Origin: Candidatus Bathyarchaeota archaeon
GTDB lineage: Archaea > Thermoproteota > Bathyarchaeia > 40CM-2-53-6
Direction of reading: 5' to 3'
Length of the DNA stretch: 64,000 nucleotides
Assembly: GCA_963726255.1 (NCBI GenBank)
Contig: CAVSBL010000002.1
Coordinates: 1,056,001-1,120,000, forward strand
The translations under genes were made by a program, and so were the position numbers. Below, one piece after another: positions 9,208-37,675 of the stretch (position 1 is the first letter of the stretch; each line of letters starts with the position of its first letter). Below the pieces are notes generated by a model. The model worked only from the letters and a program-made list of their open reading frames with translations. It was not told the DNA's origin and searched no databases.

Positions 9208-10743
9208 TTATTCTGGGGGAATTTCCTTGAAAGCAAACGATATGTTCAAACCCTCATTCCGAAGCCTGACCTTCGTAATCACGTATAGCACAGCGCCCAA
9301 CACAAACGTAACCGCAATGTATCCATAGGCTAAGGCATTGCCGCCCCAAATGCGGGGGTACGCCAAGAACTCGTAAGTCAGATAGGCGAAGACTAGGGAT
9401 TGCAGTACCCCGGCGACTGCAAGGAGAACCTTGGAACCTCCCCTTTCCTTCTTTACGGCATAGATAATTGCAGCAACTCCAACGAACGCAAAATAAATCA
9501 TCGACGCCATCACGGCACCGTAAAGGGAAGAAATCGTCCCATAGAGAAAAGCCGCGAGACCGATTAGGACGACCGTTACTGCGAGGTCGAGTATGTGCGC
9601 AACGACTGGTGAACCGTATTTCGGGCTAACGTAGGCTAACTTAGATGGAAGATACCGGTCGAAGGCTTGTGCAAGCATGTACCTGGAGATTGTAATTATG
9701 CCGAATGCCAAAATCGCAACCGTCAGCACTATCCAACCTATTCCGATTATCAAAGCCTGCAGGTAATTCGAAGAGACGCCTATGGCCAACGTCCAGAAAT
9801 TGAAAGAGTAGTTGTTCACGAGCGTTGGGTTTGAGAGAGCTGCGGTCGTGAACTGAAATCCTCCAACATAATACATCGATGCGTAGGGAATGGTTACTAC
9901 AAGGAAAGCCAGCAGGAGAGAAATTGGCACGCTCCACTTCGATGCTTTTTGTTTCAACTCGGAACCCACTGATGGTGCGGCGTTAAACCACGGATAAGTA
10001 AAGAGAGCAAAGTAGGGCATCATCAACAACGTTGAGTTAAGATCGAACGTGGGCCCGGAATAAGAACGAGCAAGCGAGGCGTATGTGGTCTGCGGAATAT
10101 TCAGCTTGTCAATGTAATTCTCTACGCCTGCTGGCCCTGCAATAATCATTGTGACTACGGCAACGGCCACCGAAAACATGCCAATAATCCAGCACGTTGA
10201 AATTAACTTGAATCCGAGCCTCGGCTTCAGTATATTGATTGCAACCAAAATTAGCACCAGACCGGACGCCAATAGGAACTGTGAGAATGGAGCCGAACCT
10301 GGGATGTTGCCGGGCAATGCGAGTCCCAGCATGCTTGAGTAACCAAGGGAAAGCCCGACAGAACCTACAGCGAACACAGCGGACAAAGCGATGAGCGCCA
10401 GATACGGCATTGTTTCAAGTGTGATGCCAGTTAGCGTTATCGTGCTACCGAGAAAACCGCCAAGCGACCTGGAGAGCCACACATAATCTCCTCCAGTCCT
10501 AGAGACTCGACTCGACAACATGGTGTAGACAATCATTTGGGGAACTGCCAATAGGGCGGCGATCGCCGACCCGAAAACTAGGTTAACGCCTGAAACGGTC
10601 GGAAGCGCAAGCATCGTAAACCCAACCAGCGCCAGCGCAGCACCTACCGACATGTAACTAACGTTGATCGCAATCGCGTCGAGCAACGAAACTTTCTTCG
10701 TTAGCCCAGTTGCATCTCGAAGGAAGATCTTAGAAGACGCCAA
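9208..10743 (-). CDS. APC family amino-acid permease
   Basis: FLRDATGL N-terminus, RTGGDYVW, SRYMLAQAFDR, C-terminal FKEIPPE; about 12-13 TMs. Confidence 0.92.
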   Translation of the reverse strand: MASSKIFLRDATGLTKKVSLLDAIAINVSYMSVGAALALVGFTMLALPTVSGVNLVFGSAIAALLAVPQMIVYTMLSSRVSRTGGDYVWLSRSLGGFLGSTITLTGITLETMPYLALIALSAVFAVGSVGLSLGYSSMLGLALPGNIPGSAPFSQFLLASGLVLILVAINILKPRLGFKLISTCWIIGMFSVAVAVVTMIIAGPAGVENYIDKLNIPQTTYASLARSYSGPTFDLNSTLLMMPYFALFTYPWFNAAPSVGSELKQKASKWSVPISLLLAFLVVTIPYASMYYVGGFQFTTAALSNPTLVNNYSFNFWTLAIGVSSNYLQALIIGIGWIVLTVAILAFGIITISRYMLAQAFDRYLPSKLAYVSPKYGSPVVAHILDLAVTVVLIGLAAFLYGTISSLYGAVMASMIYFAFVGVAAIIYAVKKERGGSKVLLAVAGVLQSLVFAYLTYEFLAYPRIWGGNALAYGYIAVTFVLGAVLYVITKVRLRNEGLNISFAFKEIPPE

Positions 10744-15561: not shown

Positions 15562-16653
15562 TTAGAGGCCTTCACGGGCGAGCTCGTTCATGAGTTCGCG
15601 TTGCCGAGAAGTCAGTTTCGTAGGCGTCTTTACCTGGACCATTACGAGTTCATCTCCTCTGCCATTTTCACGAAGGCTGGGCATTCCTTTCTTGCGTAGG
15701 CGGAAGATGGCTCCACTTTGGGTGCCAGGGGGCACGACAATTTTCGCCAGTCCATCCAAAGTGGGAACTTCGAGTTCACCGCCCAGAACCGCTTTGGAAA
15801 GGCTCAAACCGATATTGCAAACGAGGTCGTTTCTCTGTCTTTTGAAGACCTCGTGCGGCCTCACATCAACGACAACGTATAGATCTCCCCTTTGCCCACC
15901 ACCATCGGCCGTGTCTCCCTCGCCACGTAAGACCAATTGGGAACCTGTATCAACGCCAGGGGGAATTCTTATGCTGATTCGCCTGTGGCGTTCAACGATC
16001 CCTGCACCTCGGCAGACATTGCAGGGTTTCTCAATTATCGTTCCTCTGCCACGACATTTGCGACAGGGCTCGATTCGTGCAAAATGCATGAACCCTCTCG
16101 TTTGGACATGTTGAATTTGGCCTGTGCCCCCGCAGTCTGGGCATTTCTTCGGTGAAGTCCCTGGGCTCGCACCTGTCCCGCCGCATTCTGAACACCGTTC
16201 CCTCCTGGGAACCTCAATCTCAGTGGCAAGCCCAGAGTACGCTTGCTCAAGCGATATCTCTAGATCGTACCGTAGGTCTTCGCCCCTCGTCGGGCGGCGT
16301 GGCCCGCGCCCCCCAAAGAAGACATCAAAGATTGATTCAAAGCCACCAGCACCACCAGCACCGAAACCCATGTCCCTGAATATCTCGTCGAAGTTTACGC
16401 CGCGGAATATGTCCTCTGTAGAGTATTGTGAATCGATTCCAGCATGTCCCAGACGGTCGTATTGCGCTCGCTTATCGTCATCTGAAAGAATAGCGTAGGC
16501 TTCGGTTATCTCCTTGAATTTCTCCTCAGCGCCGGGTTCCTTGTTTCGGTCAGGATGGTATTTCAGGGCGAGTTTTCTGTATTCATTCTTCATTTGTTCC
16601 TTAGTGGCGTTCCGCGGCACGCCGAGTACATCGTAGTAGTCACGCTTCGACAA
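15562..16653 (-). CDS. dnaJ: Molecular chaperone DnaJ
   Basis: J-domain HPD, G/F region, four CxxCxGxG repeats. Confidence 0.98.
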
Positions 16654-16677
16654 TGCTGGTCGGCCGCGGTCTCATTG

Positions 16678-18549
16678 CTACTTCTTGTCGTCAACTACCT
16701 TGTAATCAACGTCTACCGGCTGGGTCTTGTTGTCAGTTTTCGGGGCTGATTCCGATGAGCCGCTTGAAGCTGCTTGCTGCTGAGCGACGTGTTGGTAAGC
16801 TGCAGTTCCAATGTCCTGCATGATTTTCTGAAGTGCTTCGAACTTCTGTTTAATCACGTTAACGTCCTTGCCTGCCATGGCCTGTCGAAGCTCCGCTGTA
16901 CTCTTTGTGACCTGTTCAGACTGCTCCTTTGAGATCTTACCGGCGAGTTCCTTCGTCAGCCGCTCAGCGCTGTAGATTAGGTTGTCAGCCGAATTTCGAA
17001 GCTCCGCCTCTTCCTTGCGCTTCTGATCTTCAGCCGAGAATTGATCCGCCTGTTTAACCATCTTCTCAATTTCGCCTTTCGAGAGTTTTGTGGAGGCGGT
17101 TATGGTGATCTTCTGCTCTTTGTTAGTAGCCAAGTCTTTCGCGGTCACGTTCAGGATGCCGTTTGCGTCTATGTCAAATGTGACTTCGATTTGTGGTACT
17201 CCCCGAGGTGCCGGTGGAATTCCTGTCAGGTTGAACATGCCTAGTGAGACGTTGTCGCCTGCCATGGGCCTTTCACCTTGGAGAACATGGACTGTGACCG
17301 TCGTCTGAAAGTCGGCCGCCGTTGAGAAAATTTGGCTTCGCTTCGTCGGAATAGTAGTATTTCGTTCAATTATCTTCGTAGCAACGGCGCCAAGAGTCTC
17401 AACGCCAAGAGACAGCGGAGTAACGTCGAGGAGCAAAAGGTCGCGAACTTCCCCACCGATTACGCCCGCTTGAATAGCGGCCCCCGTGGCGACGCACTCC
17501 ATGGGGTCGACCCCGCTCTCTGCTTCTTTGCCCATGTAATCTTGTACGAATTTTCGAACGATGGGCATCCGGGTCGGTCCACCGACTAGGATGATTTTGT
17601 CGACATCTTTGGGGGTAAGCTTGGCGTCTTGAATAGCCCGTTCCGTGGGGCCTCGGCAACGGTCGATCGTTGGTCGAACAATCTCCTCTAGTTTGGCCCG
17701 AGTTAGGGTCATTGTGAGATGTTTTGGGCCCGCCGCGTCGGCTGAGATGAATGGAAGGTTAATGTCCGTCGTCAGGACGGTGGAGAGTTCGATTTTGGCC
17801 TTTTCAGCCGCTTCGCGAACCCTTTGGCTCGCGACCTTGTCGTTACGTAGGTCTATTCCTGTGTTCGCCTTGAATTCCCCTGCTATGTAGTCTAGGAGGG
17901 AGTTGTCCATGTCGGTTCCCCCGAGCTGAGTATCGCCGCTAGTTGACAGAACCTCAAAGACTGGTGGTGCCTTGGGATCGGGCTTACCTACGTCCATCAT
18001 GGTTACGTCCAAGGTTCCGCCTCCCAGGTCGAAGACCATTATCTTGAGTTCCTTTTCCACCCGGTCAAGGCCATAGGCTAGCGATGCGGCAGTTGGTTCG
18101 TTGATTATTCTAACAACCTCAAGACCCGCGATTGCGCCTGCGTCCTTTGTCGCCTGACGTTGGTTGTCATTGAAATAGGCAGGGACGGTGATCACGGCTT
18201 TCTGGACGGTATCACCCAAGAAGGCTTCCGCGTCGCGTTTGATTTTCTGAAGTATGAAGGCGGAAATCTGCTGCGGCGTGTATTCTTTGCCGAAAATGTT
18301 GACCTTATAGTCAGTACCCATCTTGCGTTTGATTGCTTGAACCGTACCCTCCGGATTCGAGACGGCCTGGCGCCTAGCTGGTTCGCCTACGAGCAGCTGC
18401 CCGTCTTTGGTGAAGGCTACGTACGAAGGAAATGCCTTGCCGCCCACTGACGTCCCTTCAGCGCTAGGGATAATGGTGGGGCGTCCGGCAATGACGGCTG
18501 CTGCAGCAGAATTGCTAGTTCCAAGGTCTATTCCGATAATCTTAGGCAA
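16678..18549 (-). CDS. dnaK: Molecular chaperone DnaK (Hsp70)
   Basis: [36 protein letters not shown]. Confidence 0.99.
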
Positions 18550-18619
18550 CGATTGCTCTCCCAGTAGTTACTTAACGTAACAAGGTACTAGGGATGGGTT
18601 CAAAAACCTTATGGGGCAA

Positions 18620-19228
18620 TTAATTCGCGCTCTCGTCTTCCAGCGACCCCTCTTCGGAACCCTTTCGCTTACTGACAACGACTAGGCTTGGCCTAATCAC
18701 CTTGTTATTTAATGAGTAACCCTTGCGGACTTCTTCTACAACCATGTTCTCGGGTTTTTCGTCACTCTCCATGTAGCCCACAACTTCGTGCAGCTCTGTG
18801 TCCAGAGGTTGCCCAATGGCGGGAATTTCCTTTAAGCCCTCACTAGTCAAGACTTCAGTTAATTGCTGCTGTAACATCTTCAGCCCTACCGCAATTTCAT
18901 CTGGGGGTAACGTGTTGCTTTCATGAACCATCTGTTCGGCCTGTTGGAGCGCATCTAGAATCGGCAGTAACTTAACCAGTAACCCCTCGGATGCTTGTTT
19001 TGTTGCGGTGTCAACCTGACGCTGTGAGATCTTCTGGAGATTCTCCATGTCCGCCTGTAGCCGTTGCAACCGGTCAAAGTAGTCCGCTGCCTTCCTCTCG
19101 CTCTCCTCTTTCTCCTTGGCCACTTCACCCAGCTGCCTACGGACTTCATCCAGCTGTTTGCGTGTATCTTGGATGGACTGGGGTTTGTCGCTCTTGGCCA
19201 ATGGTTCTTTCCTCGGATCGATTGGCAA
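18620..19228 (-). CDS. grpE: Nucleotide exchange factor GrpE
   Basis: LQADMEN, LLPILD, KGY..NNKVIRPSLVVV; upstream of dnaK. Confidence 0.96.
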   Translation of the reverse strand: MPIDPRKEPLAKSDKPQSIQDTRKQLDEVRRQLGEVAKEKEESERKAADYFDRLQRLQADMENLQKISQRQVDTATKQASEGLLVKLLPILDALQQAEQMVHESNTLPPDEIAVGLKMLQQQLTEVLTSEGLKEIPAIGQPLDTELHEVVGYMESDEKPENMVVEEVRKGYSLNNKVIRPSLVVVSKRKGSEEGSLEDESAN

Positions 19229-23334: not shown

Positions 23335-25737
23335 TTGATCCCTTTGCCTTCTGAACTACCAACCACTAGCTTGCGCTGGACCTGCGACCCCAAGATTATC
23401 GGAGCAAAATCCACGGAGGAAATCAAGCCTCTCGATGTGTTAGTTGGCCAACCACGAGCTTACGAAGCACTGAGATTTGGCTTCAGCATCAAAGAACACG
23501 GCTTCAACATTTTCGCGGCCGGCCCACAAGCAACTGGCAAGACAACCACTACAACCGACTTCCTAGAGGACATCGCGAAGAAATTGCCCACCCCCTACGA
23601 CTGGTGCTATGTTCACAATTTCGAGGATGACTATCAACCCAAGGCACTACGCTGCCCCCCCGGGCTTGGAAAGCAGCTCAAACAGGACATGCGTGAAATG
23701 ATTCAAGCCGCACGCCTCGCAATTTCACAATTATTCGAAGGGGACGACTACGCTGCGAAGCGCGATGAGATGTCCCGGAAACTGAACAAGCGGAGACAAG
23801 AGGTGATTACACAGATGGGCCAGGTTGCAGAAAGCGCAGGATTCGCGATGCAACTCACAGCCCTGGGCATCTCCTTAGTCCCAGTCGTGAAAGGCCACCC
23901 GTTGTCGGAAGAGGAGTTCCTATCGCTGCCCAAAGAAAGCCAGCAGAAATTTGCTGAGCAGCGTGAAACAATGAAAGAGAAACTTCAGCCCCTCATGAGA
24001 GAACTTCGAGATCTCGAATTGAAAGCACACGATGAAATGGCCAAATTCGACAAAGATGTAACCCTGTACGCTATCGAACGTCTAATGTCAAGCCTACTCG
24101 AGAAGTATAAGCAAGATAAGGGAATCACAGATTTTCTGCACGAGATTCAGACACACATAGTGGAGGACTTGGACAGGTCCTTCAGAGGACGGCGAGGAGA
24201 CAAGAAAGAAACAGATCAAGACGCCTCGGCGGACGATTTGGCCTTCCGAGTTTATGATGTTAACGTTATCGCTGACAATTCAGGAGTGCAAGGCGCCCCC
24301 ATTGTCGTAGAAAGCAACCCCACCTATGATAATGTGCTCGGCCGAATAGAGAAGGAAAGCCAGCTCGGAACTCTGACAACCGATTTCACACTGATTCGAG
24401 GCGGCTCCTTACACGAGGCAAATGGCGGATTCCTAATAATCCGTGCAGAACAGATCCTTCGCGACCTGAACGTCTACGAGGGTTTGAAACGCACGCTTAA
24501 GGCCGGGGAGATTGTCATCGAAGATCTACCACAGAGGGTAGGATACGCGAGTGTAAAGAGCCTGGCCCCCCAGCCGATACCCTTGGATGTGAAGGTCGTC
24601 CTGATCGGCGATTCTTCCACGTACCAACTACTCTTCGCTTACGACCCTGAATTCCGTGAACTCTTCAAGGTGAAAGCAGATTTCGATTCAACCATGGAAA
24701 AAATTGATAGCAATCTCAAAAACTATGCAGGGTTCTTCACGACTCTGGTGGTAAACGAGAATCTGAAACACCTCGACGCATCAGCCCTAGCTCGACTTCT
24801 AGAGCACAGTTCACGGCTTGCTGAAGACCAGACCAAGCTGTCAACCCAATTTGGCCTCGTGGCGGATGTTGTGCGTGAAGCACATTTCTATGCCTCGCAG
24901 GAAAATGCGAAGTACATAACGGCATCGCATGTTGAGAAGGCGATTGAGGCCAAGGTCTATCGTTCAAACCTGGTGCAGGATAAGATCAAGGAATACATTC
25001 AGCGAAATGTGATTTTCATCTCAACCGATGGAGCCGCGGTTGGTCAGATTAACGGGTTGTCAGTTCTGAGCGTGGGCGACTTTTCGTTCGGCGCCCCGTC
25101 ACGCATAACCGTTGCAGTCGGGCTCGGAAAGGAGGGGTTGATAGATGTTCAAAGAGAAGTCCACATGAGCGGCCCGATACATGGGAAAGGGATTATGATC
25201 ATTGCTGGATATTTGGCCTCAAAGTTCGCTTACGATAAGCCCCTGACTCTGTCAGCCAGAATAGTTTTCGAACAGAACTATGAAGGAGTTGAAGGAGATA
25301 GTGCATCGAGCACAGAACTATACGCCTTGCTCTCCGCACTTTCCGGCGCCCCGATCAAACAGAACTTCGCAGTAACCGGTTCAGTAAACCAGAATGGCGA
25401 CGTGCAGCCAATTGGAGGAGCTAACGAGAAAATTGAAGGCTACTACGAAATCTGTAAGGCGAGAGGCCTGAACGGGCAGCACAGCGTAATCATTCCGGCA
25501 AGCAACGTTCAGAACCTCATGTTGAAGCAGGAGGTGGTCGACGCCGTGAAGGTAGGGAAGTTTCACATTTACCCTGTCAAAACCATTGAGGAAGGTATTG
25601 AAGTCTTGACCGGCGTCCCAGCTGGAAAGCGGCTGCCGAACGGGGGCTACGAGGAGGACTCTATCTACGGGCGAGTGGACAAGCGGTTACGGGAGATGGC
25701 GGAGACAGTCAAACGTTTCCAAGCGTTCGCCGCGTAA
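23335..25737 (+). CDS. Lon-like ATP-dependent protease (LonC/YcbZ type, S16)
   Basis: GQPRA, Walker A GPQATGKT, ANGG, GQINGLSV, VEGDSASS (catalytic Ser), GGANEKIEG (Lys). Confidence 0.92.
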   Translation: MIPLPSELPTTSLRWTCDPKIIGAKSTEEIKPLDVLVGQPRAYEALRFGFSIKEHGFNIFAAGPQATGKTTTTTDFLEDIAKKLPTPYDWCYVHNFEDDYQPKALRCPPGLGKQLKQDMREMIQAARLAISQLFEGDDYAAKRDEMSRKLNKRRQEVITQMGQVAESAGFAMQLTALGISLVPVVKGHPLSEEEFLSLPKESQQKFAEQRETMKEKLQPLMRELRDLELKAHDEMAKFDKDVTLYAIERLMSSLLEKYKQDKGITDFLHEIQTHIVEDLDRSFRGRRGDKKETDQDASADDLAFRVYDVNVIADNSGVQGAPIVVESNPTYDNVLGRIEKESQLGTLTTDFTLIRGGSLHEANGGFLIIRAEQILRDLNVYEGLKRTLKAGEIVIEDLPQRVGYASVKSLAPQPIPLDVKVVLIGDSSTYQLLFAYDPEFRELFKVKADFDSTMEKIDSNLKNYAGFFTTLVVNENLKHLDASALARLLEHSSRLAEDQTKLSTQFGLVADVVREAHFYASQENAKYITASHVEKAIEAKVYRSNLVQDKIKEYIQRNVIFISTDGAAVGQINGLSVLSVGDFSFGAPSRITVAVGLGKEGLIDVQREVHMSGPIHGKGIMIIAGYLASKFAYDKPLTLSARIVFEQNYEGVEGDSASSTELYALLSALSGAPIKQNFAVTGSVNQNGDVQPIGGANEKIEGYYEICKARGLNGQHSVIIPASNVQNLMLKQEVVDAVKVGKFHIYPVKTIEEGIEVLTGVPAGKRLPNGGYEEDSIYGRVDKRLREMAETVKRFQAFAA

Positions 25738-27078: not shown

Positions 27079-28704
27079 TCATCTTGATGATCCAGTGACA
27101 GCCTTGGCTGTCATCGATGGTTTGTGAGGGGCATAGAAGATGCTGAGGACTGCCTTGAAGCCTACTGTTCGTATGATGTTTACTGAGAAGACGGCGTAAC
27201 CTGAGGCCAGGATGACTGCTCCGACGAGGGCTGCATTCATGTATGGTTCGAACGGCCCAAGGCCGTTTATGTAGAGCATCCTTCTTAGCATGCCCGCTAC
27301 TCCAGCGAGCCCCATGCTTAGACCCATCACAAGACCGCCAATCGTCCACAGAATCAGTTGCACATCCGCGAGACGTTCATTGAGTTGCTTACCTGTCAGC
27401 ATCGGGAACAGTGCATAGATGGCTGCAAAGATCGTGAGACCCAGGCCGATTAGGAGTTGTACATGTGCGTGAATTCCCACGATCCATTGAGTGTTATGGA
27501 AATATCGGTTAACCGCATAATTGGCTTGTATTATCCCAGCTGTACCGCCTATACCGTAACCCATGATGGAGACAAGAACATACTTCAGCGGAGCCGTGTA
27601 CTTGACCGGCCACGCCAACCACAGCGTCATTAGCACCGCGAATATTGTCAATCCCATTGTAACTAGTTCCCCCCATGTTACAATTTGACCCTCAACGAGA
27701 AGGCCCAGGGGTTGAGGCGTGTCAGCCATCATATGATGACCCCAAACTCCCATTGAGACCAAGAGATCTGCGAGAATCACTGACCTTACAACGTTCTCAC
27801 CGTATAGCTTCCGATTCAAGAGCAACGGAACTATGAGATACCATGTCGCGGCAGTGAACATCAGAACGTTCCCGTCGGCAATCATATCCAAACCCCACCA
27901 AAACACGTTCTTGTAGACCAGAGGATCAATCAGCGTTGGACTGAGAGCCATTGAGGGAACGAGATAGGCAATTCCGTAGATTGATAGTAGAACGCCCACT
28001 CCTCCCATGACCACTGCATTGATTGTAGTGTCAACACAGCCCCTGAATACGCCCACAACGAATACTGGAAAGGTGAAGACCTTACTTGTGTAGTCCGGCA
28101 CTCCACGAATCTTAGCTCTGAGCTTGTCTACGTTGAAAGCTGTGACAATCAATTCCCTAGCCACGAAGGCCGGCTTGGGCTGAGAGCTGACTTTCGGACG
28201 TAGTGGGAGAAAGATTGTTGCGAACATGTTGAAGAAGAACGCTAAGACGGCTGCGAAGATTAGGATCATACCTACCCCAAACGGAAGAATGCTTACGGGA
28301 TTCCACCCTACGGTTTTAACCGCGACGGGAAGCGGCCAATAGAGAGTGTAAAGCGGAGCATAATGCGTGATGAAAGTAGTTGTCCAAACCGTCATTACGC
28401 CCACGGTCATTAGAAGAAAGGAAGCGTTCGCAGTCTTCCTGCTGTAAATATCACGACCCAACACGTACGGAACAAGGAAGTAGAATGCCCCCATCACCGC
28501 CATGTAAGCGAACCCATAAATCAAGACGAACGGGTGCGCGGTCAACATGGCATAGAAATGTTGCGGGTCCAATCCTAGCAGGGGAAGGTCTATGTTATCA
28601 ACCCGACCTCGCATCATAACGCCTTCTATTCCACCAAGGCCTAGGAAAAGCAGAGAAACGACCACGAACCTTAGCGAGAGGATCTTCCGTTCATCCTCGT
28701 TCAA
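27079..28704 (-). CDS. Heme-copper oxidase superfamily subunit I, gNOR-like
   Basis: Helix II His (TAHP), WGHH and HAH heme ligands are present. The helix VI HPxVY motif is replaced by WWGLDMIADGNVL. Confidence 0.85.
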   Translation of the reverse strand: MNEDERKILSLRFVVVSLLFLGLGGIEGVMMRGRVDNIDLPLLGLDPQHFYAMLTAHPFVLIYGFAYMAVMGAFYFLVPYVLGRDIYSRKTANASFLLMTVGVMTVWTTTFITHYAPLYTLYWPLPVAVKTVGWNPVSILPFGVGMILIFAAVLAFFFNMFATIFLPLRPKVSSQPKPAFVARELIVTAFNVDKLRAKIRGVPDYTSKVFTFPVFVVGVFRGCVDTTINAVVMGGVGVLLSIYGIAYLVPSMALSPTLIDPLVYKNVFWWGLDMIADGNVLMFTAATWYLIVPLLLNRKLYGENVVRSVILADLLVSMGVWGHHMMADTPQPLGLLVEGQIVTWGELVTMGLTIFAVLMTLWLAWPVKYTAPLKYVLVSIMGYGIGGTAGIIQANYAVNRYFHNTQWIVGIHAHVQLLIGLGLTIFAAIYALFPMLTGKQLNERLADVQLILWTIGGLVMGLSMGLAGVAGMLRRMLYINGLGPFEPYMNAALVGAVILASGYAVFSVNIIRTVGFKAVLSIFYAPHKPSMTAKAVTGSSR

Positions 28705-28707
28705 AGC

Positions 28708-29289
28708 TTAACCCTCCACCTGGATAGCGTTTGGAACATACATCAACGGGTTTTGCGGACCACTGTACTCCGTTGACCGAACGTCATAGAATCCCGGCTC
28801 GTCGAAAACCCACCTCAGAGTATTCTTGTAGGGTTCTGGAACGACCTGCATTTGAAAAACCATAGTCCCATCCTTCCTAAAGACGCCGAACCCGTACGTC
28901 ACGTCATGGGAAACCACAACGAACTCAACGACCTTCCCAACGGGAATTGTGACCGGTTGCTGCGGCATGACGAAATGGTAATTGTCAACTTGAATAGTGA
29001 CCGTCATGACCGGAGTCGACTGCACCCATAACCCGTAGTCCGCGGAAGGGATCAGCGGAGAGAGCGTAACAAGGTTCCCCAGCAGAACCACAGCGAGGAG
29101 AAAGTACAGCCAATTGCGTTCACTCCCATGCATCCCACGATTAACATCAATCTCACGTGACCCTGCCTTCGAATCCGCATCGTGCCTCTTTGGTGCCTTT
29201 CGACTATAGACATAGAAGACTGAAACGAACGAAATAATTACGGCAATAAGCACGAGGTAGAAAATCTCAAAGGCATATTGCATGATCAA
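28708..29289 (-). CDS. Heme-copper oxidase subunit II-like cupredoxin lacking CuA ligands
   Basis: 2 TMs plus cupredoxin domain. SHDVTYGF and RSTEYSGPQNPLM replace the canonical DVxH and CxExCGxxHxxM motifs. Confidence 0.85.
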   Translation of the reverse strand: MIMQYAFEIFYLVLIAVIISFVSVFYVYSRKAPKRHDADSKAGSREIDVNRGMHGSERNWLYFLLAVVLLGNLVTLSPLIPSADYGLWVQSTPVMTVTIQVDNYHFVMPQQPVTIPVGKVVEFVVVSHDVTYGFGVFRKDGTMVFQMQVVPEPYKNTLRWVFDEPGFYDVRSTEYSGPQNPLMYVPNAIQVEG

Positions 29290-29942: not shown

Positions 29943-30899
29943 CTACTGAACTGTGAGGCTTCTGCCATTATGCTTCAGTGCCCGGAGCGCAAGATACGTG
30001 ATCATTTTCGATGGTTGCCCAGGCTTCTCTAGGTAGGGGTACCGGTTGTTTCCGTTCAGATTCCACCTACCATCTCGCCTTCGAGCGGAGATCAGCATGG
30101 AGAAAGCTTCCTGCATCCGATTGTCCGAGCCGTAACCCAGGCTGGTCATGAAATCTAAGCCGACAAGGTAGTCGTAGATGTAGTGCCAAGGATAATGGAG
30201 GGTCATCCAAGTTCGAGATGGCCGCCCCTCATGAATCAGCCGCCGCTTCAGAAAGAACCCGGCACCTCGTTCAATCGCCCTTCGAACGCGCGGGCTTCGC
30301 TCGTTCACAGGGACTTCCGCGAAGGCGCTCATGGCCTCCCATCCATCGATCGTCCCTCTCGGGCGCCCGAAACAATCCCAGCCCCCATCGGGCAACTGCT
30401 CATTCACCAGCCAGTTGATCGCGGACTGAACCCGTTCGTCTTTCAGGTAGCCAAACCGGATTAGCGACCGGACCATATTTCCGGTCATGCACAAGTGGCC
30501 TCTCCCCTTGTGGAGGGGATGGGACACAACGCCGCCGGAATATCCACCATCCTTCGCGAGGTGTAAGTCAAACCATAACTCTGTCGCGTTTGCGATTCTT
30601 TCATCTTTCCGGGTGAGGCCGAGGTCGGCCAGGACTTGCAGCTGCCAAATTGTTGACCTAAACTTCGGTCGATAGCACGTTTTCTTTGTGGCCCACCAGG
30701 TTTTCTCCCTCTGAAGGGAGAGAATGCGCGCGGCCCAACCCTTTTTCGGAATGGCTGATTGAAGCTCGGACAAAGTGCGTTTGCTGGGTCGAGGTCCCAA
30801 CAGGTCTCTCGCTGTAAGGTATCTAATTGAGGGTTCAGTAGACTCAAGCAACCAATCAATAACGCTACCACGGGACACTGTTTCAACCAATTGGCTCAC
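29943..30899 (-). CDS. Prenyltransferase/squalene-oxidase repeat (alpha/alpha barrel) protein
   Basis: IDWLLES.EPSIRY...RDLL, WLVNEQLPDGGWDC, YPWHY.YDYL, RRRDGRW, PSKMIT. Confidence 0.8.
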   Translation of the reverse strand: MSQLVETVSRGSVIDWLLESTEPSIRYLTARDLLGPRPSKRTLSELQSAIPKKGWAARILSLQREKTWWATKKTCYRPKFRSTIWQLQVLADLGLTRKDERIANATELWFDLHLAKDGGYSGGVVSHPLHKGRGHLCMTGNMVRSLIRFGYLKDERVQSAINWLVNEQLPDGGWDCFGRPRGTIDGWEAMSAFAEVPVNERSPRVRRAIERGAGFFLKRRLIHEGRPSRTWMTLHYPWHYIYDYLVGLDFMTSLGYGSDNRMQEAFSMLISARRRDGRWNLNGNNRYPYLEKPGQPSKMITYLALRALKHNGRSLTVQ

Positions 30900-35250: not shown

Positions 35251-35832
35251 TCAGACACCTCCTTTTCTGTTGATGTTGAATGATTTCTCAAGTTTCGCTA
35301 CCATCTGCTCGTATTTGTTATGGAAATCTGAACCGAATCTCGTCTCGACTTCATTGAAATTCCTTGTGAGGCCTGCTAGCTCTGGTTTGGGTAGAACTTT
35401 CTCGGTCATCGGGAAGAGAAGGTAGTCTTCTCTCCAAATGTGATCCGTGTACAAATCCATGGCACCTTTGATTGTCGCAGAGATCGTGACCTTTGCCGTT
35501 GAATCGCCGCTGGCGTATTTCTCGATCGCATCGTTCAGAGCGGTCATAAGCGCTCTCCCCTGTTTGTGCTCGCTTGTGAGTGTGCCTATTGGGCATCCCT
35601 GCGGACGGACTCCATTCCTTTCCAGCGTCGGGAAAAGACCGTCTTCTTCTTTTGCGTGATGAGCCTTGTCGGCAAAAGTTCGGAAGAAATCTACGATCTC
35701 CGTCAATATTGCAGCATCAATATCTCCGCCACTTTCAAGACGTTTATGCATAGCGGTGAGTACGTTAACCATTCGCAGGATTACTTTGTGCTCTTCCTCC
35801 AACACCTGGATAGCGGACGACGCAGAATTCAC
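35251..35832 (-). CDS. Hemerythrin HHE cation-binding domain protein
   Basis: LEEEH, HHAKEEDGLFP, EHKQGR, HIWREDYLLFP. Confidence 0.92.
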   Translation of the reverse strand: MNSASSAIQVLEEEHKVILRMVNVLTAMHKRLESGGDIDAAILTEIVDFFRTFADKAHHAKEEDGLFPTLERNGVRPQGCPIGTLTSEHKQGRALMTALNDAIEKYASGDSTAKVTISATIKGAMDLYTDHIWREDYLLFPMTEKVLPKPELAGLTRNFNEVETRFGSDFHNKYEQMVAKLEKSFNINRKGGV

Positions 35833-36472: not shown

Positions 36473-36934
36473 TCACACTGACGGCTTTGAATCGTTCTTC
36501 CGTATCCCTTGGTGCGTCTGCAAAGCCCAGGGAAAGATGCGTTTTTCTTCGGCCTCAAAATGCGAACGAACCAGGTTGTCGAATTCGGAGGGTATTGATC
36601 CAAGTTCTTCAGGCGAGTTCATAGCCTTCTTCGAAATTGTATCAGCCAGTTTATGCATCGTTCGATGCTGCTGGAACACCTTGATGGCACCATTCGCCCC
36701 TTTTCGCCCATACGTATCGATGAAAAGTTTCAGCAATACATTCTCTTCGTCAACAATGTGTTGAACGGTTGAGTTGTCAAATTCTCTTGCCAGTTCGGCT
36801 CCTCTCGCATAGTCTTTCTTCTCCAAAACGTCGGTAAGCTCTGACAAGCGTTTTCTCTGTTCCTGATGCTCTTGGGAGAGGAGCGCAATGAGTTCCTCAA
36901 GTTCGAGTGGGCGAGCGACGATTCTCGAGGACAA
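36473..36934 (-). CDS. Hemerythrin HHE domain protein
   Basis: LSQEH, QHIVDEE, QQHR, HFEAEEKRIFP. Confidence 0.85.
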   Translation of the reverse strand: MSSRIVARPLELEELIALLSQEHQEQRKRLSELTDVLEKKDYARGAELAREFDNSTVQHIVDEENVLLKLFIDTYGRKGANGAIKVFQQHRTMHKLADTISKKAMNSPEELGSIPSEFDNLVRSHFEAEEKRIFPWALQTHQGIRKNDSKPSV

Positions 36935-37568: not shown

Positions 37569-37675
37569 TGGTGGGCCCGGAGGGATTCGAACCCTCGACC
37601 AGCAGGTTCCTCCGCTATGCATATGAGCTTCGACTTTCAGTGTCTGTCGCTCTAGCCTAGCTGAGCTACGGGCCC
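37569..37675 (-). tRNA. tRNA-Ile(CAT) (Ile2-type) with two introns: 30/31 (37629-37643) and 37/38 (37608-37621)
   Basis: Mature GGGCCCGTAGCTCAGCTAGGCTAGAGCGACAG|GCTCATA|ACCTGCTGGTCGAGGGTTCGAATCCCTCCGGGCCCACCA. The GGGCCC acceptor stem indicates Ile rather than Met. BHB central helix CGAC/GTCG at intron 1. Confidence 0.88.

Follow-up and report, generated by a model that had tools for sequence, protein, structure and literature searches.

The A-, B- and C-type oxygen reductases within the superfamily of heme-copper oxidoreductases (HCOs) have three histidine ligands to CuB and a histidine-tyrosine cross-link, and carry CuA in subunit II only where they are cytochrome c oxidases. The ba3 oxidase of Thermus thermophilus has the helix VI motif H-P-I-V-Y, and C-type enzymes have their tyrosine in the stretch that precedes the HH pair. 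Among the nitric oxide (NO) reductases (NORs) of the superfamily, structures have been solved for P. aeruginosa cNOR and G. stearothermophilus qNOR; in the cNOR and qNOR families a glutamate occupies the helix position that the tyrosine has in the oxygen reductases. Here we describe a pair of genes from a Candidatus Bathyarchaeota archaeon (GTDB class Bathyarchaeia) that almost certainly encodes a NOR-related enzyme of another kind, a norGH-type gNOR, which is a two-subunit membrane enzyme of the HCO superfamily. The pair lies at positions 27079 to 29289 of a 64,000-nt stretch of assembly GCA_963726255.1 (contig CAVSBL010000002.1, positions 1,056,001 to 1,120,000); this whole stretch is referred to below as the window.

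The gNOR family was reportedly first described by Hemp and Gennis and by Sievert et al., both in 2008. It is defined by an aspartate in place of an active-site histidine and by a cupredoxin subunit II that lacks CuA, has been placed next to the B family, and is found in both Archaea and Bacteria (PMC11214002). The family is proposed to be a quinol-dependent NO reductase, a proposal argued from a synthetic mimic of the active site rather than from an enzyme assay (PMC11214002). Its genes are called norGH, and the copy in Ca. Methylomirabilis oxyfera is Damo_1118-1119 / CBE68178.1 (PMC8906906, PMC6094997). cNOR and qNOR resemble gNOR in the proposed chemistry, the reduction of 2 NO to N2O at a centre of heme and non-heme metal with a carboxylate ligand and no tyrosine, and qNOR uses the quinol donor that is also proposed for gNOR; by contrast, cNOR and qNOR stand on the C-family side of the superfamily, their FeB has three histidine ligands and one glutamate ligand, and they have NorC or a fused N-terminal domain instead of a cupredoxin (PMC11214002). 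The first-pass annotation of the window, made from the letters alone, regarded gNOR as a mainly bacterial family. This view needs correcting, since the consulted parts of PMC11214002 list archaeal gNORs from Caldarchaeales, Geothermarchaeales, Methanomethylicia and Conexivisphaerales and from one member of the Bathyarchaeia; in those tables the Bathyarchaeia row is JdFR-11, of the order B25, and the wetland/peat genus of the window is not among the rows.

Results

A tightly coupled pair of HCO subunit genes

Both genes are on the minus strand of the window. The upstream gene (28708..29289) encodes a NorH-like subunit II of 193 aa and the downstream gene (27079..28704) a NorG-like subunit I of 541 aa; as called, the two open reading frames (ORFs) are co-directional and tightly coupled, with 3 bases between the stop of subunit II and the start of subunit I. 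Residues 11-498 of subunit I match the Pfam family COX1 with 216.4 bits (cut-off 34.8). The best NCBIfam oxidase model, CtaD_CoxA, scores 123 bits against a cut-off of 671, and none of the NCBIfam NorB models matches at E<=0.01. The fold is that of an HCO with 12 core transmembrane helices and an extra amphipathic stretch at about residues 166-212. An AlphaFold2 model of subunit I, computed from an alignment of 37 sequences, has a mean predicted local distance difference test score of 83.3 and a predicted template-modelling score of 0.86, and its top solved matches in Foldseek are subunit I of bo3 and aa3 oxidases, with template-modelling scores of 0.69-0.76.

Subunit II matches no Pfam family at E<=0.01 and scores 26.8 bits with the NCBIfam CoxB model (cut-off 147.7). 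Its hydropathy profile shows two hydrophobic stretches at the N-terminus (about residues 5-28 and 60-82); a cupredoxin domain follows. The closest solved relative of subunit II is the CuA domain of subunit II of T. thermophilus ba3 (E about 1e-5). Pfam detected no cytochrome c domain in the pair, and the minus strand beside the operon contains no plausible small hydrophobic ORF that could be a candidate third subunit.

We sought relatives in one genome per GTDB species; at least 600 stretches matched, with a relative encoded in at least 593 of them, of which we retained the best 80. The comparisons between loci below refer to these 80 and the window. The subunit II gene is directly upstream of the subunit I gene in 77 of the 81 loci, and the other four end at a contig boundary. 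The alignment of subunit I comprises 79 sequences, the window's own and those of 78 of the 80 loci, since we left out two fragments below 450 aa in length; the relatives compared range down to about 40% identity.

The active site of subunit I lacks the helix VI histidine and tyrosine of oxygen reductases

The ligands for both hemes and the helix VII pair of metal-ligand histidines are retained, as the first-pass annotation had stated. H57 in helix II (28534..28536, minus strand) is a ligand of the low-spin heme, W321-G-H323-H324 in helix VII (27733..27744, minus strand) provides the metal-ligand pair, and H412-A-H414 in helix X (27463..27471, minus strand) presumably binds the high-spin heme through H412 and the low-spin heme through H414, by analogy with solved oxidases. 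All five histidines are identical in all 79 sequences, as are R474 and R475.

The departure from the oxygen reductases is in helix VI, where translation gives W269-W-G-L-D273-M-I-A-D277-G (27871..27900, minus strand) in place of W-x-x-G-H-P-E-V-Y. Eight residues of this motif, W269, W270, G271, L272, D273, A276, D277 and G278, are identical in 79 of 79 sequences, positions 274 and 275 being the only two of the ten without full identity. The motif can be aligned with the oxidases in two registers. When D-P-L-x5-F-W is used as an anchor, the alignment is gapless and places Asp273 under the metal-ligand histidine and Asp277 under the cross-linked tyrosine. The spacing of this anchor is that of the A-type oxidase of the same genome, D-P-L-M-W-Q-H-M-F-W-F-F-G-H-P-E-V-Y, and it also fits F-W-V-W-A-H-N-L-M-E of nNOR-type genes; W269, D273 and D277 then stand at i, i+4 and i+8, as do the W, H and Y of oxidases, and Asp277 matches the glutamate that nNOR has at the tyrosine position (Dataset S1, PMC11214002). 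Phmmer, the family profile and MAFFT argue for the other register, in which Leu272 rather than Asp273 is under the histidine; they pair the W-G of the motif with the W-G of the oxidases, opening a gap of one residue, and Ala276 is then at the tyrosine position. We rejected this gapped register because the gap would break transmembrane helix 261-296, which is continuous in the AlphaFold2 model. We infer that Asp273 is at the histidine position, preferring the gapless register because the anchor aligns without a gap, the modelled helix is unbroken and the i, i+4, i+8 spacing is kept. The claim of the first-pass annotation that the histidine and the tyrosine are replaced, with an aspartate at or near the histidine position, is compatible with both registers. 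Indeed, in either register W269-G278 (WWGLDMIADG) contains no histidine and no tyrosine, and there is no tyrosine in residues 265-288. The sequence thus predicts a second-metal site of two histidines (H323 and H324) and two aspartates (D273 and D277).

The partner subunit is a cupredoxin with a replaced CuA site

Alignment of subunit II with the ba3 CuA domain locates the former CuA ligands in two segments, both on the minus strand: S127-H-D-V-T-Y132-G-F-G (28885..28911), in which Tyr132 takes the place of the first CuA histidine, and S172-T-E-Y-S176-G-P-Q-N180-P-L-M183 (28741..28776). In the second segment the two cysteines are replaced by Ser172 and Ser176 and the second histidine by Asn180, and Met183 is retained, so that four of the five side-chain ligands are changed, in keeping with the earlier claim that the CuA ligands had been lost. 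The replacements are themselves conserved. Among 77 subunit II sequences, Tyr132 and Ser172 are each present in 76, Ser176 in 69 and Met183 in 70, and T173, E174, Y175 and G177 are present in all 77; S-T-E-Y-S-G-P, D129, Q146, Q148 and W160 are conserved features new to this subunit. Judged from its sequence, subunit II is a cupredoxin anchored in the membrane and unable to bind CuA.

These features bear on whether the pair might be an ordinary A-, B- or C-type O2 reductase, with the odd helix VI being an artefact of alignment or a sequencing error. The fold and the heme ligands are as in O2 reductases, and the name in databases is cytochrome c oxidase. This explanation is already refuted at the level of sequence, and we consider it hardly credible: W269-G278 lacks histidine and tyrosine in either register, with eight of its ten residues identical in all 79 sequences, no tyrosine precedes the HH pair at the place where the C-type enzymes carry theirs, four of five side-chain CuA ligands are replaced, the NCBIfam oxidase models score far under their cut-off, and a canonical A-type oxidase, which has both GHPEVY and a CuA subunit, is available for contrast in the same genome.

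The pair belongs to the gNOR family

The window pair has the features by which gNOR is recognised: an HCO subunit I with both sets of heme ligands, an aspartate for one histidine of the metal site, no cross-linked tyrosine, and a cupredoxin without CuA encoded upstream. We used as a proxy for family membership the grouping of the window protein with genes that the authors of PMC11214002 count as GNOR. Archaeon HR02 (L004), whose protein is 67% identical to that of the window, has exactly four HCO genes, one A-type fusion of subunits I and III, one of the window's family and two of nNOR type, and Dataset S6 lists HRBIN02 sp002898395 with A=1, NNOR=2 and GNOR=1 (PMC11214002). For JdFR-13 (L032), with 58% identity to the window protein, GNOR=1 is the single HCO entry (PMC11214002). 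By elimination of other HCO genes, the family members in HR02 and JdFR-13 are the GNOR entries; JdFR-56 (L045, Dehalococcoidales) likewise has GNOR=1, with none of the other NORs recorded for it (PMC11214002). The window protein falls outside the A, B and C families and in a clade with GNOR-counted genes that has 100% support. The first-pass annotation had recognised a gNOR signature in the combination of an aspartate for the histidine and a CuA-less subunit II, and this identification holds. It had also anticipated that the gene would be mis-annotated; public names of homologues are indeed "cytochrome c oxidase subunit 1" and "cbb3-type cytochrome c oxidase subunit I". Compared with norGH of, for example, Ca. 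Methylomirabilis oxyfera, the window pair differs in nothing that defines the family.

Other described HCO families share some of these features. nNOR (reference Aigarchaeota archaeon SCGC AAA471-B22) is, like the window pair, a B-family-related HCO found in the same archaeal lineages, and likewise carries a carboxylate where helix VI would have its tyrosine; nNOR keeps three histidines (FWVWAHNLME) and has H-L-M in helix X, whereas the window protein has D273 for the first histidine and H-A-H, and we therefore rejected membership of nNOR. In the two nNOR-type genes of HR02 (L088:1450-2928 and L089:1456-2928), helix VI contains A-H-N-L-M-E, and the H-L-M of helix X corresponds to His/Met ligation of the low-spin heme. 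Membership of cNOR or qNOR was rejected on the lack of a NorB match, the cupredoxin partner and the replacement of the first histidine.

Among O2-reducing enzymes, T. thermophilus ba3 (1EHK and related entries) has the subunit II most similar to that of the window; ba3 has a full CuA site, whereas the window pair has lost both that site and the helix VI histidine and tyrosine. Subunit I, in contrast, scores higher in profile comparison with A-family quinol oxidases (103 bits) than with ba3 (about 70 bits). The quinol oxidases bo3 of E. coli and aa3-600 of B. subtilis (7N9Z, 6KOB) also have a CuA-less subunit II and match subunit I best in both sequence and fold, but they keep GHPEVY and reduce O2, and their quinol-site arginine aligns with a non-conserved leucine in the window protein. 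The quinol-site residues D74 and H94 of aa3-600 have E27 (78 of 79 sequences) and H49 (59 of 79) as their counterparts in the alignment, which is consistent with quinol as the electron donor.

gNOR is a patchily distributed accessory gene with archaeal nearest relatives

The closest relatives of the window protein among the best 80 loci are in three metagenome-assembled genomes (MAGs) labelled Bathyarchaeia (86-90% identity). Next come Caldarchaeales (65-68%) and Geothermarchaeota (58%), and further away are a second archaeal group together with Chloroflexota (46-51%), and Campylobacterota and Bacteroidota (40-44%). In an unrooted tree of 79 rows (IQ-TREE, quick settings), the window groups with two Bathyarchaeia rows (support 100), and the sister of this group is a set of eight Caldarchaeales rows (99). 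The window is part of an all-archaeal clade of 16 (SH-aLRT 100) that includes HR02 and JdFR-13. Its 15 nearest neighbours in the tree are all archaeal, first Bathyarchaeia, then Caldarchaeales, then Geothermarchaeota and kin, and four other Bathyarchaeia rows are in a separate archaeal clade. Forcing the seven Bathyarchaeia rows to be monophyletic costs 250 log-likelihood units (approximately unbiased (AU) test, p=6.8e-8), for a group that was named post hoc, after the tree had been seen.

Within the kin of the window's genome, with presence defined as a match at E<=1e-80, gNOR is in eight of 22 congeneric species, six with a copy of the window's type (85-93% identity) and two with a copy of the second type (50%). 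It is in two of 14 genomes from other genera of the family, both with the second type, and in none of 24 genomes from other families of the order at the same threshold. As a control, we looked for the A-type oxidase and found it in 17 of the 22 congeners, a sign that the genus respires aerobically or microaerobically; four carriers of gNOR (G012, G022, G002 and G021) had no A-type oxidase match. One genome from another genus of the family (G037) contains two copies of the second lineage (C62:2795-4375 and C1:41229-42806), which are 51% and 50% identical to the window protein.

Similarity at the DNA level to the three nearest relatives is limited to the operon, with no wider synteny. The genes that flank the relative L013 have counterparts elsewhere in the window's genome, with about 80% amino acid identity. 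At 0.50-0.51, the region does not differ in GC content from the sequence around it. We conclude that gNOR is an accessory gene, probably mobile among archaea, and nothing indicates a bacterial donor. The first-pass annotation had suggested horizontal acquisition by an archaeon of a gene known mainly from bacteria; mobility is likely, given the eight of 22 congeners and the two lineages, and it is the bacterial source for which we find no support.

A recent transfer of a bacterial NOR into the archaeon would fit the patchy presence relative to the A-type oxidase, the lack of synteny past the operon and the failure of the seven Bathyarchaeia-labelled sequences to form one clade. We regard such a transfer as improbable, since the 15 nearest sequences are archaeal, with supports of 100, 99 and 100 for the successive groups, the nearest bacterial clade is only 46-50% identical to the window protein, and the GC content is unremarkable; the unrooted tree of the best 80 of at least 593 loci allows neither a donor nor a direction to be named.

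Both subunit genes are, to judge from substitution ratios, under strong purifying selection. Comparison with the two nearest relatives, for which dS is saturated, gives dN/dS values of 0.05-0.06 (subunit I) and 0.11 (subunit II). We asked on the same grounds how plausible it is that the pair is a decaying or inactive remnant. The gene is absent from most congeners, and the copy in one of them (G010) has an in-frame TGA. Set against this are the two intact frames with coupled start and stop, the low ratios, the retention of all cofactor ligands, and a contig from an RNA library, derived from a 97% identical relative, that falls on subunit I; the chance that the pair is such a remnant is close to negligible. 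An apparent in-frame stop in the Methanomethylicia locus L040 was rejected, being the natural stop inside over-long match coordinates.

Genome context

The genome has 2.42 Mb in 5 contigs, with 98.5% completeness and 9.3% contamination, and the window is on a contig of 2.36 Mb. The same contig carries the canonical A-type oxidase (L081, G000:C2:171351-172835) with its CuA-containing subunit II and a CtaA-like gene. It also encodes a cytochrome bd quinol oxidase and has three genes for cytochrome b (the features listed are L093 and L094, G000:C2:1198909-1201135, and L090-L092, G000:C2:241995-242543, 98815-99357 and 682283-682810). The first-pass annotation had named nirK and nirS as genes to look for beside an NO reductase, and neither was found in this 98.5% complete genome: the best nirK profile score is 24 bits against a cut-off of 296, with none over the cut-off, and nirS has no match, nor does narG. 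The nos_propeller profile (nosZ) had no match either, but it had none in any control genome, so that its silence is uninformative.

The immediate neighbours of the operon are genes for asparagine synthetase (AsnA) and a glyoxalase-like protein. Across the 81 loci, a hemerythrin gene is directly downstream in eight, a Crp/FNR regulator is nearby in nine, and an HTH_10 regulator is upstream in 14 archaeal loci. The window locus differs from such loci in having no adjoining hemerythrin or regulator; it also lacks an ORF of about 201 aa, matching no Pfam family over its cut-off, that is found in 28 bacterial loci, most of them from Campylobacterota (within L039-L080; e.g. L049:2721-3326), where it shares the strand of subunit I and is directly downstream of it; in these bacteria it may represent an additional gNOR subunit or an assembly factor. 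Two ORFs with hemerythrin domains are in the window 6-7 kb from the operon, on the same (minus) strand (35251-35832 and 36473-36934); across its entire length the first shares 37% identity (E 1e-42) with the hemerythrin encoded directly downstream of gNOR in the Anaerolineae locus L035. In four Caldarchaeales (L002, L003, L006 and L009) the gNOR pair is inside the conserved ribosomal-protein cluster, an odd site for a respiratory enzyme, with the gene order Spt5/NusG, L11, L1, subunit II, subunit I, L10 (L009:5321-6675; L006:4928-5434 and 9776-10642).

Elsewhere in the window, a DnaJ-DnaK-GrpE operon is at 15562-19228 (minus strand), and an 800-aa LonC/LonB-like AAA protease is encoded at 23335-25737 (plus strand), next to AsnA. 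A 318-aa protein with weak repeats of the squalene-hopene cyclase type (31.6 bits) is encoded at 29943-30899 (minus strand). A 104-nt tRNA at 37572-37675 (minus strand), detected with an Rfam score of 48 bits and not reported by ARAGORN, is probably an intron-containing archaeal tRNA gene.

The stretch is present in freshwater-sediment and wetland metagenomes from several studies. Transcription of norGH has been described for a Methylomirabilis MAG (PMC8906906).

Discussion

Published work already covers the family with its active site, the CuA-less partner and the occurrence in archaea, and the known picture of gNOR is unchanged by our analysis. What is specific here is modest: a genus of wetland/peat Bathyarchaeia, a patchy occurrence with two lineages, and denitrification partners that were not found.

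We consider it somewhat more likely than not that the pair functions in the reduction of NO. The account that seems to us the best, and that we hold with the same moderate confidence, is that of a quinol-driven reductase of NO produced outside the cell. The putative 2-His/2-Asp site would bind a non-heme metal, more likely iron than copper, and would resemble the 3-His/1-Glu FeB site of cNOR and qNOR, and that of nNOR, with a carboxylate at the tyrosine position. Since the pair has neither CuA nor a cytochrome c domain, electrons would enter from membrane quinol and go directly to the low-spin heme, the route taken in bo3, aa3-600 and qNOR; the three cytochrome b genes and the cytochrome bd quinol oxidase of the genome are consistent with a quinol donor. 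The reaction would be 2 NO to N2O. Because no nitrite reductase was found in the genome, the NO would have to come from outside, with neighbouring denitrifiers, nitrifiers or chemodenitrification in wetland/peat sediment as possible sources. Such an enzyme would mainly serve to clear NO, which poisons the A-type and bd oxidases of the cell as well as its iron-sulfur proteins; a possible secondary role would be the opportunistic use of NO as an electron sink.

Several observations count against this proposal, in addition to the alignments that place Leu272 under the histidine. Among the papers listed by our literature search for gNOR there was no purification, assay or biochemical study, and NO reduction is a proposal for the family as a whole, resting on the synthetic mimic cited in PMC11214002. 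With no nitrite reductase found in the genome, there is no internal source of NO. Of the quinone biosynthesis genes, which the first-pass annotation had also named as genes to look for, MqnA and MqnD were searched for and not found. No NO-responsive regulator or hemerythrin adjoins the operon of the window. Lastly, the RNA support consists of a single contig of 264 nt from one wetland RNA library, which is possibly DNA; it represents a relative with 97% identity and covers 28053-28315 in subunit I, and the rest of the stretch is without RNA cover, which proves nothing.

An alternative possibility is that gNOR is a real family with another substrate, such as peroxide, N2O or another small oxidant of sulfidic or redox-fluctuating sediment, or that it is a sensor. 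We give this a minor but appreciable chance. It would be consistent with there being no gNOR member that has been assayed, with the lack of a nitrite reductase in the window's genome, and with the strongly conserved new motif at the place of CuA in subunit II, which suggests a function that is not yet understood; in addition, among the 15 archaeal rows with GNOR>=1 in the consulted part of Dataset S8, nirK is present in four and nirS in none (PMC11214002). On the other hand, a carboxylate at the tyrosine position is a trait of known NORs. In addition, bacterial members of the family occur together with nirS, nap and nos (PMC11214002). Indeed, among the Dataset S8 rows with GNOR=1 that we considered, nirS=1 is recorded for four of four Sulfurovum and three of four Methylomirabilis (PMC11214002). 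Sulfurovum riftiae and Sulfurovum sp000010345 are among the carriers with GNOR=1 in that dataset. The hemerythrin and Crp/FNR neighbours of gNOR at other loci would fit a response to NO or O2 stress.

NO reduction as the function of the pair also allows a more speculative reading, which we think doubtful: gNOR in this genus may be a mobile accessory module with which cells that have no nitrite reductase respire or scavenge NO from neighbours at a distinct 2-His/2-Asp iron centre. Its two divergent lineages occur in a minority of the species, and some of these species showed no A-type oxidase match. If this were true, the NO-reducing centre would be mechanistically unlike that of every characterised NOR, and if, in addition, the protons were taken from inside the cell, the enzyme would support an energy-conserving, "NO-only" respiration in archaea that have long been regarded as strictly anaerobic fermenters or acetogens.

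Our analysis extends the family into wetland/peat Bathyarchaeia that also carry aerobic terminal oxidases. That reductases for nitrite, nitrate and nitrous oxide were not found alongside gNOR in this genome favours the scavenging of NO over denitrification, with the silence on nitrous oxide subject to the limit of the nosZ search given above. The routine label of "cytochrome c oxidase" can wrongly suggest O2 respiration, or hide an NO sink, in metabolic reconstructions of such organisms. gNOR-type enzymes may contribute to environmental N2O, and reliable assignments would refine the picture of which organisms might turn NO into N2O.

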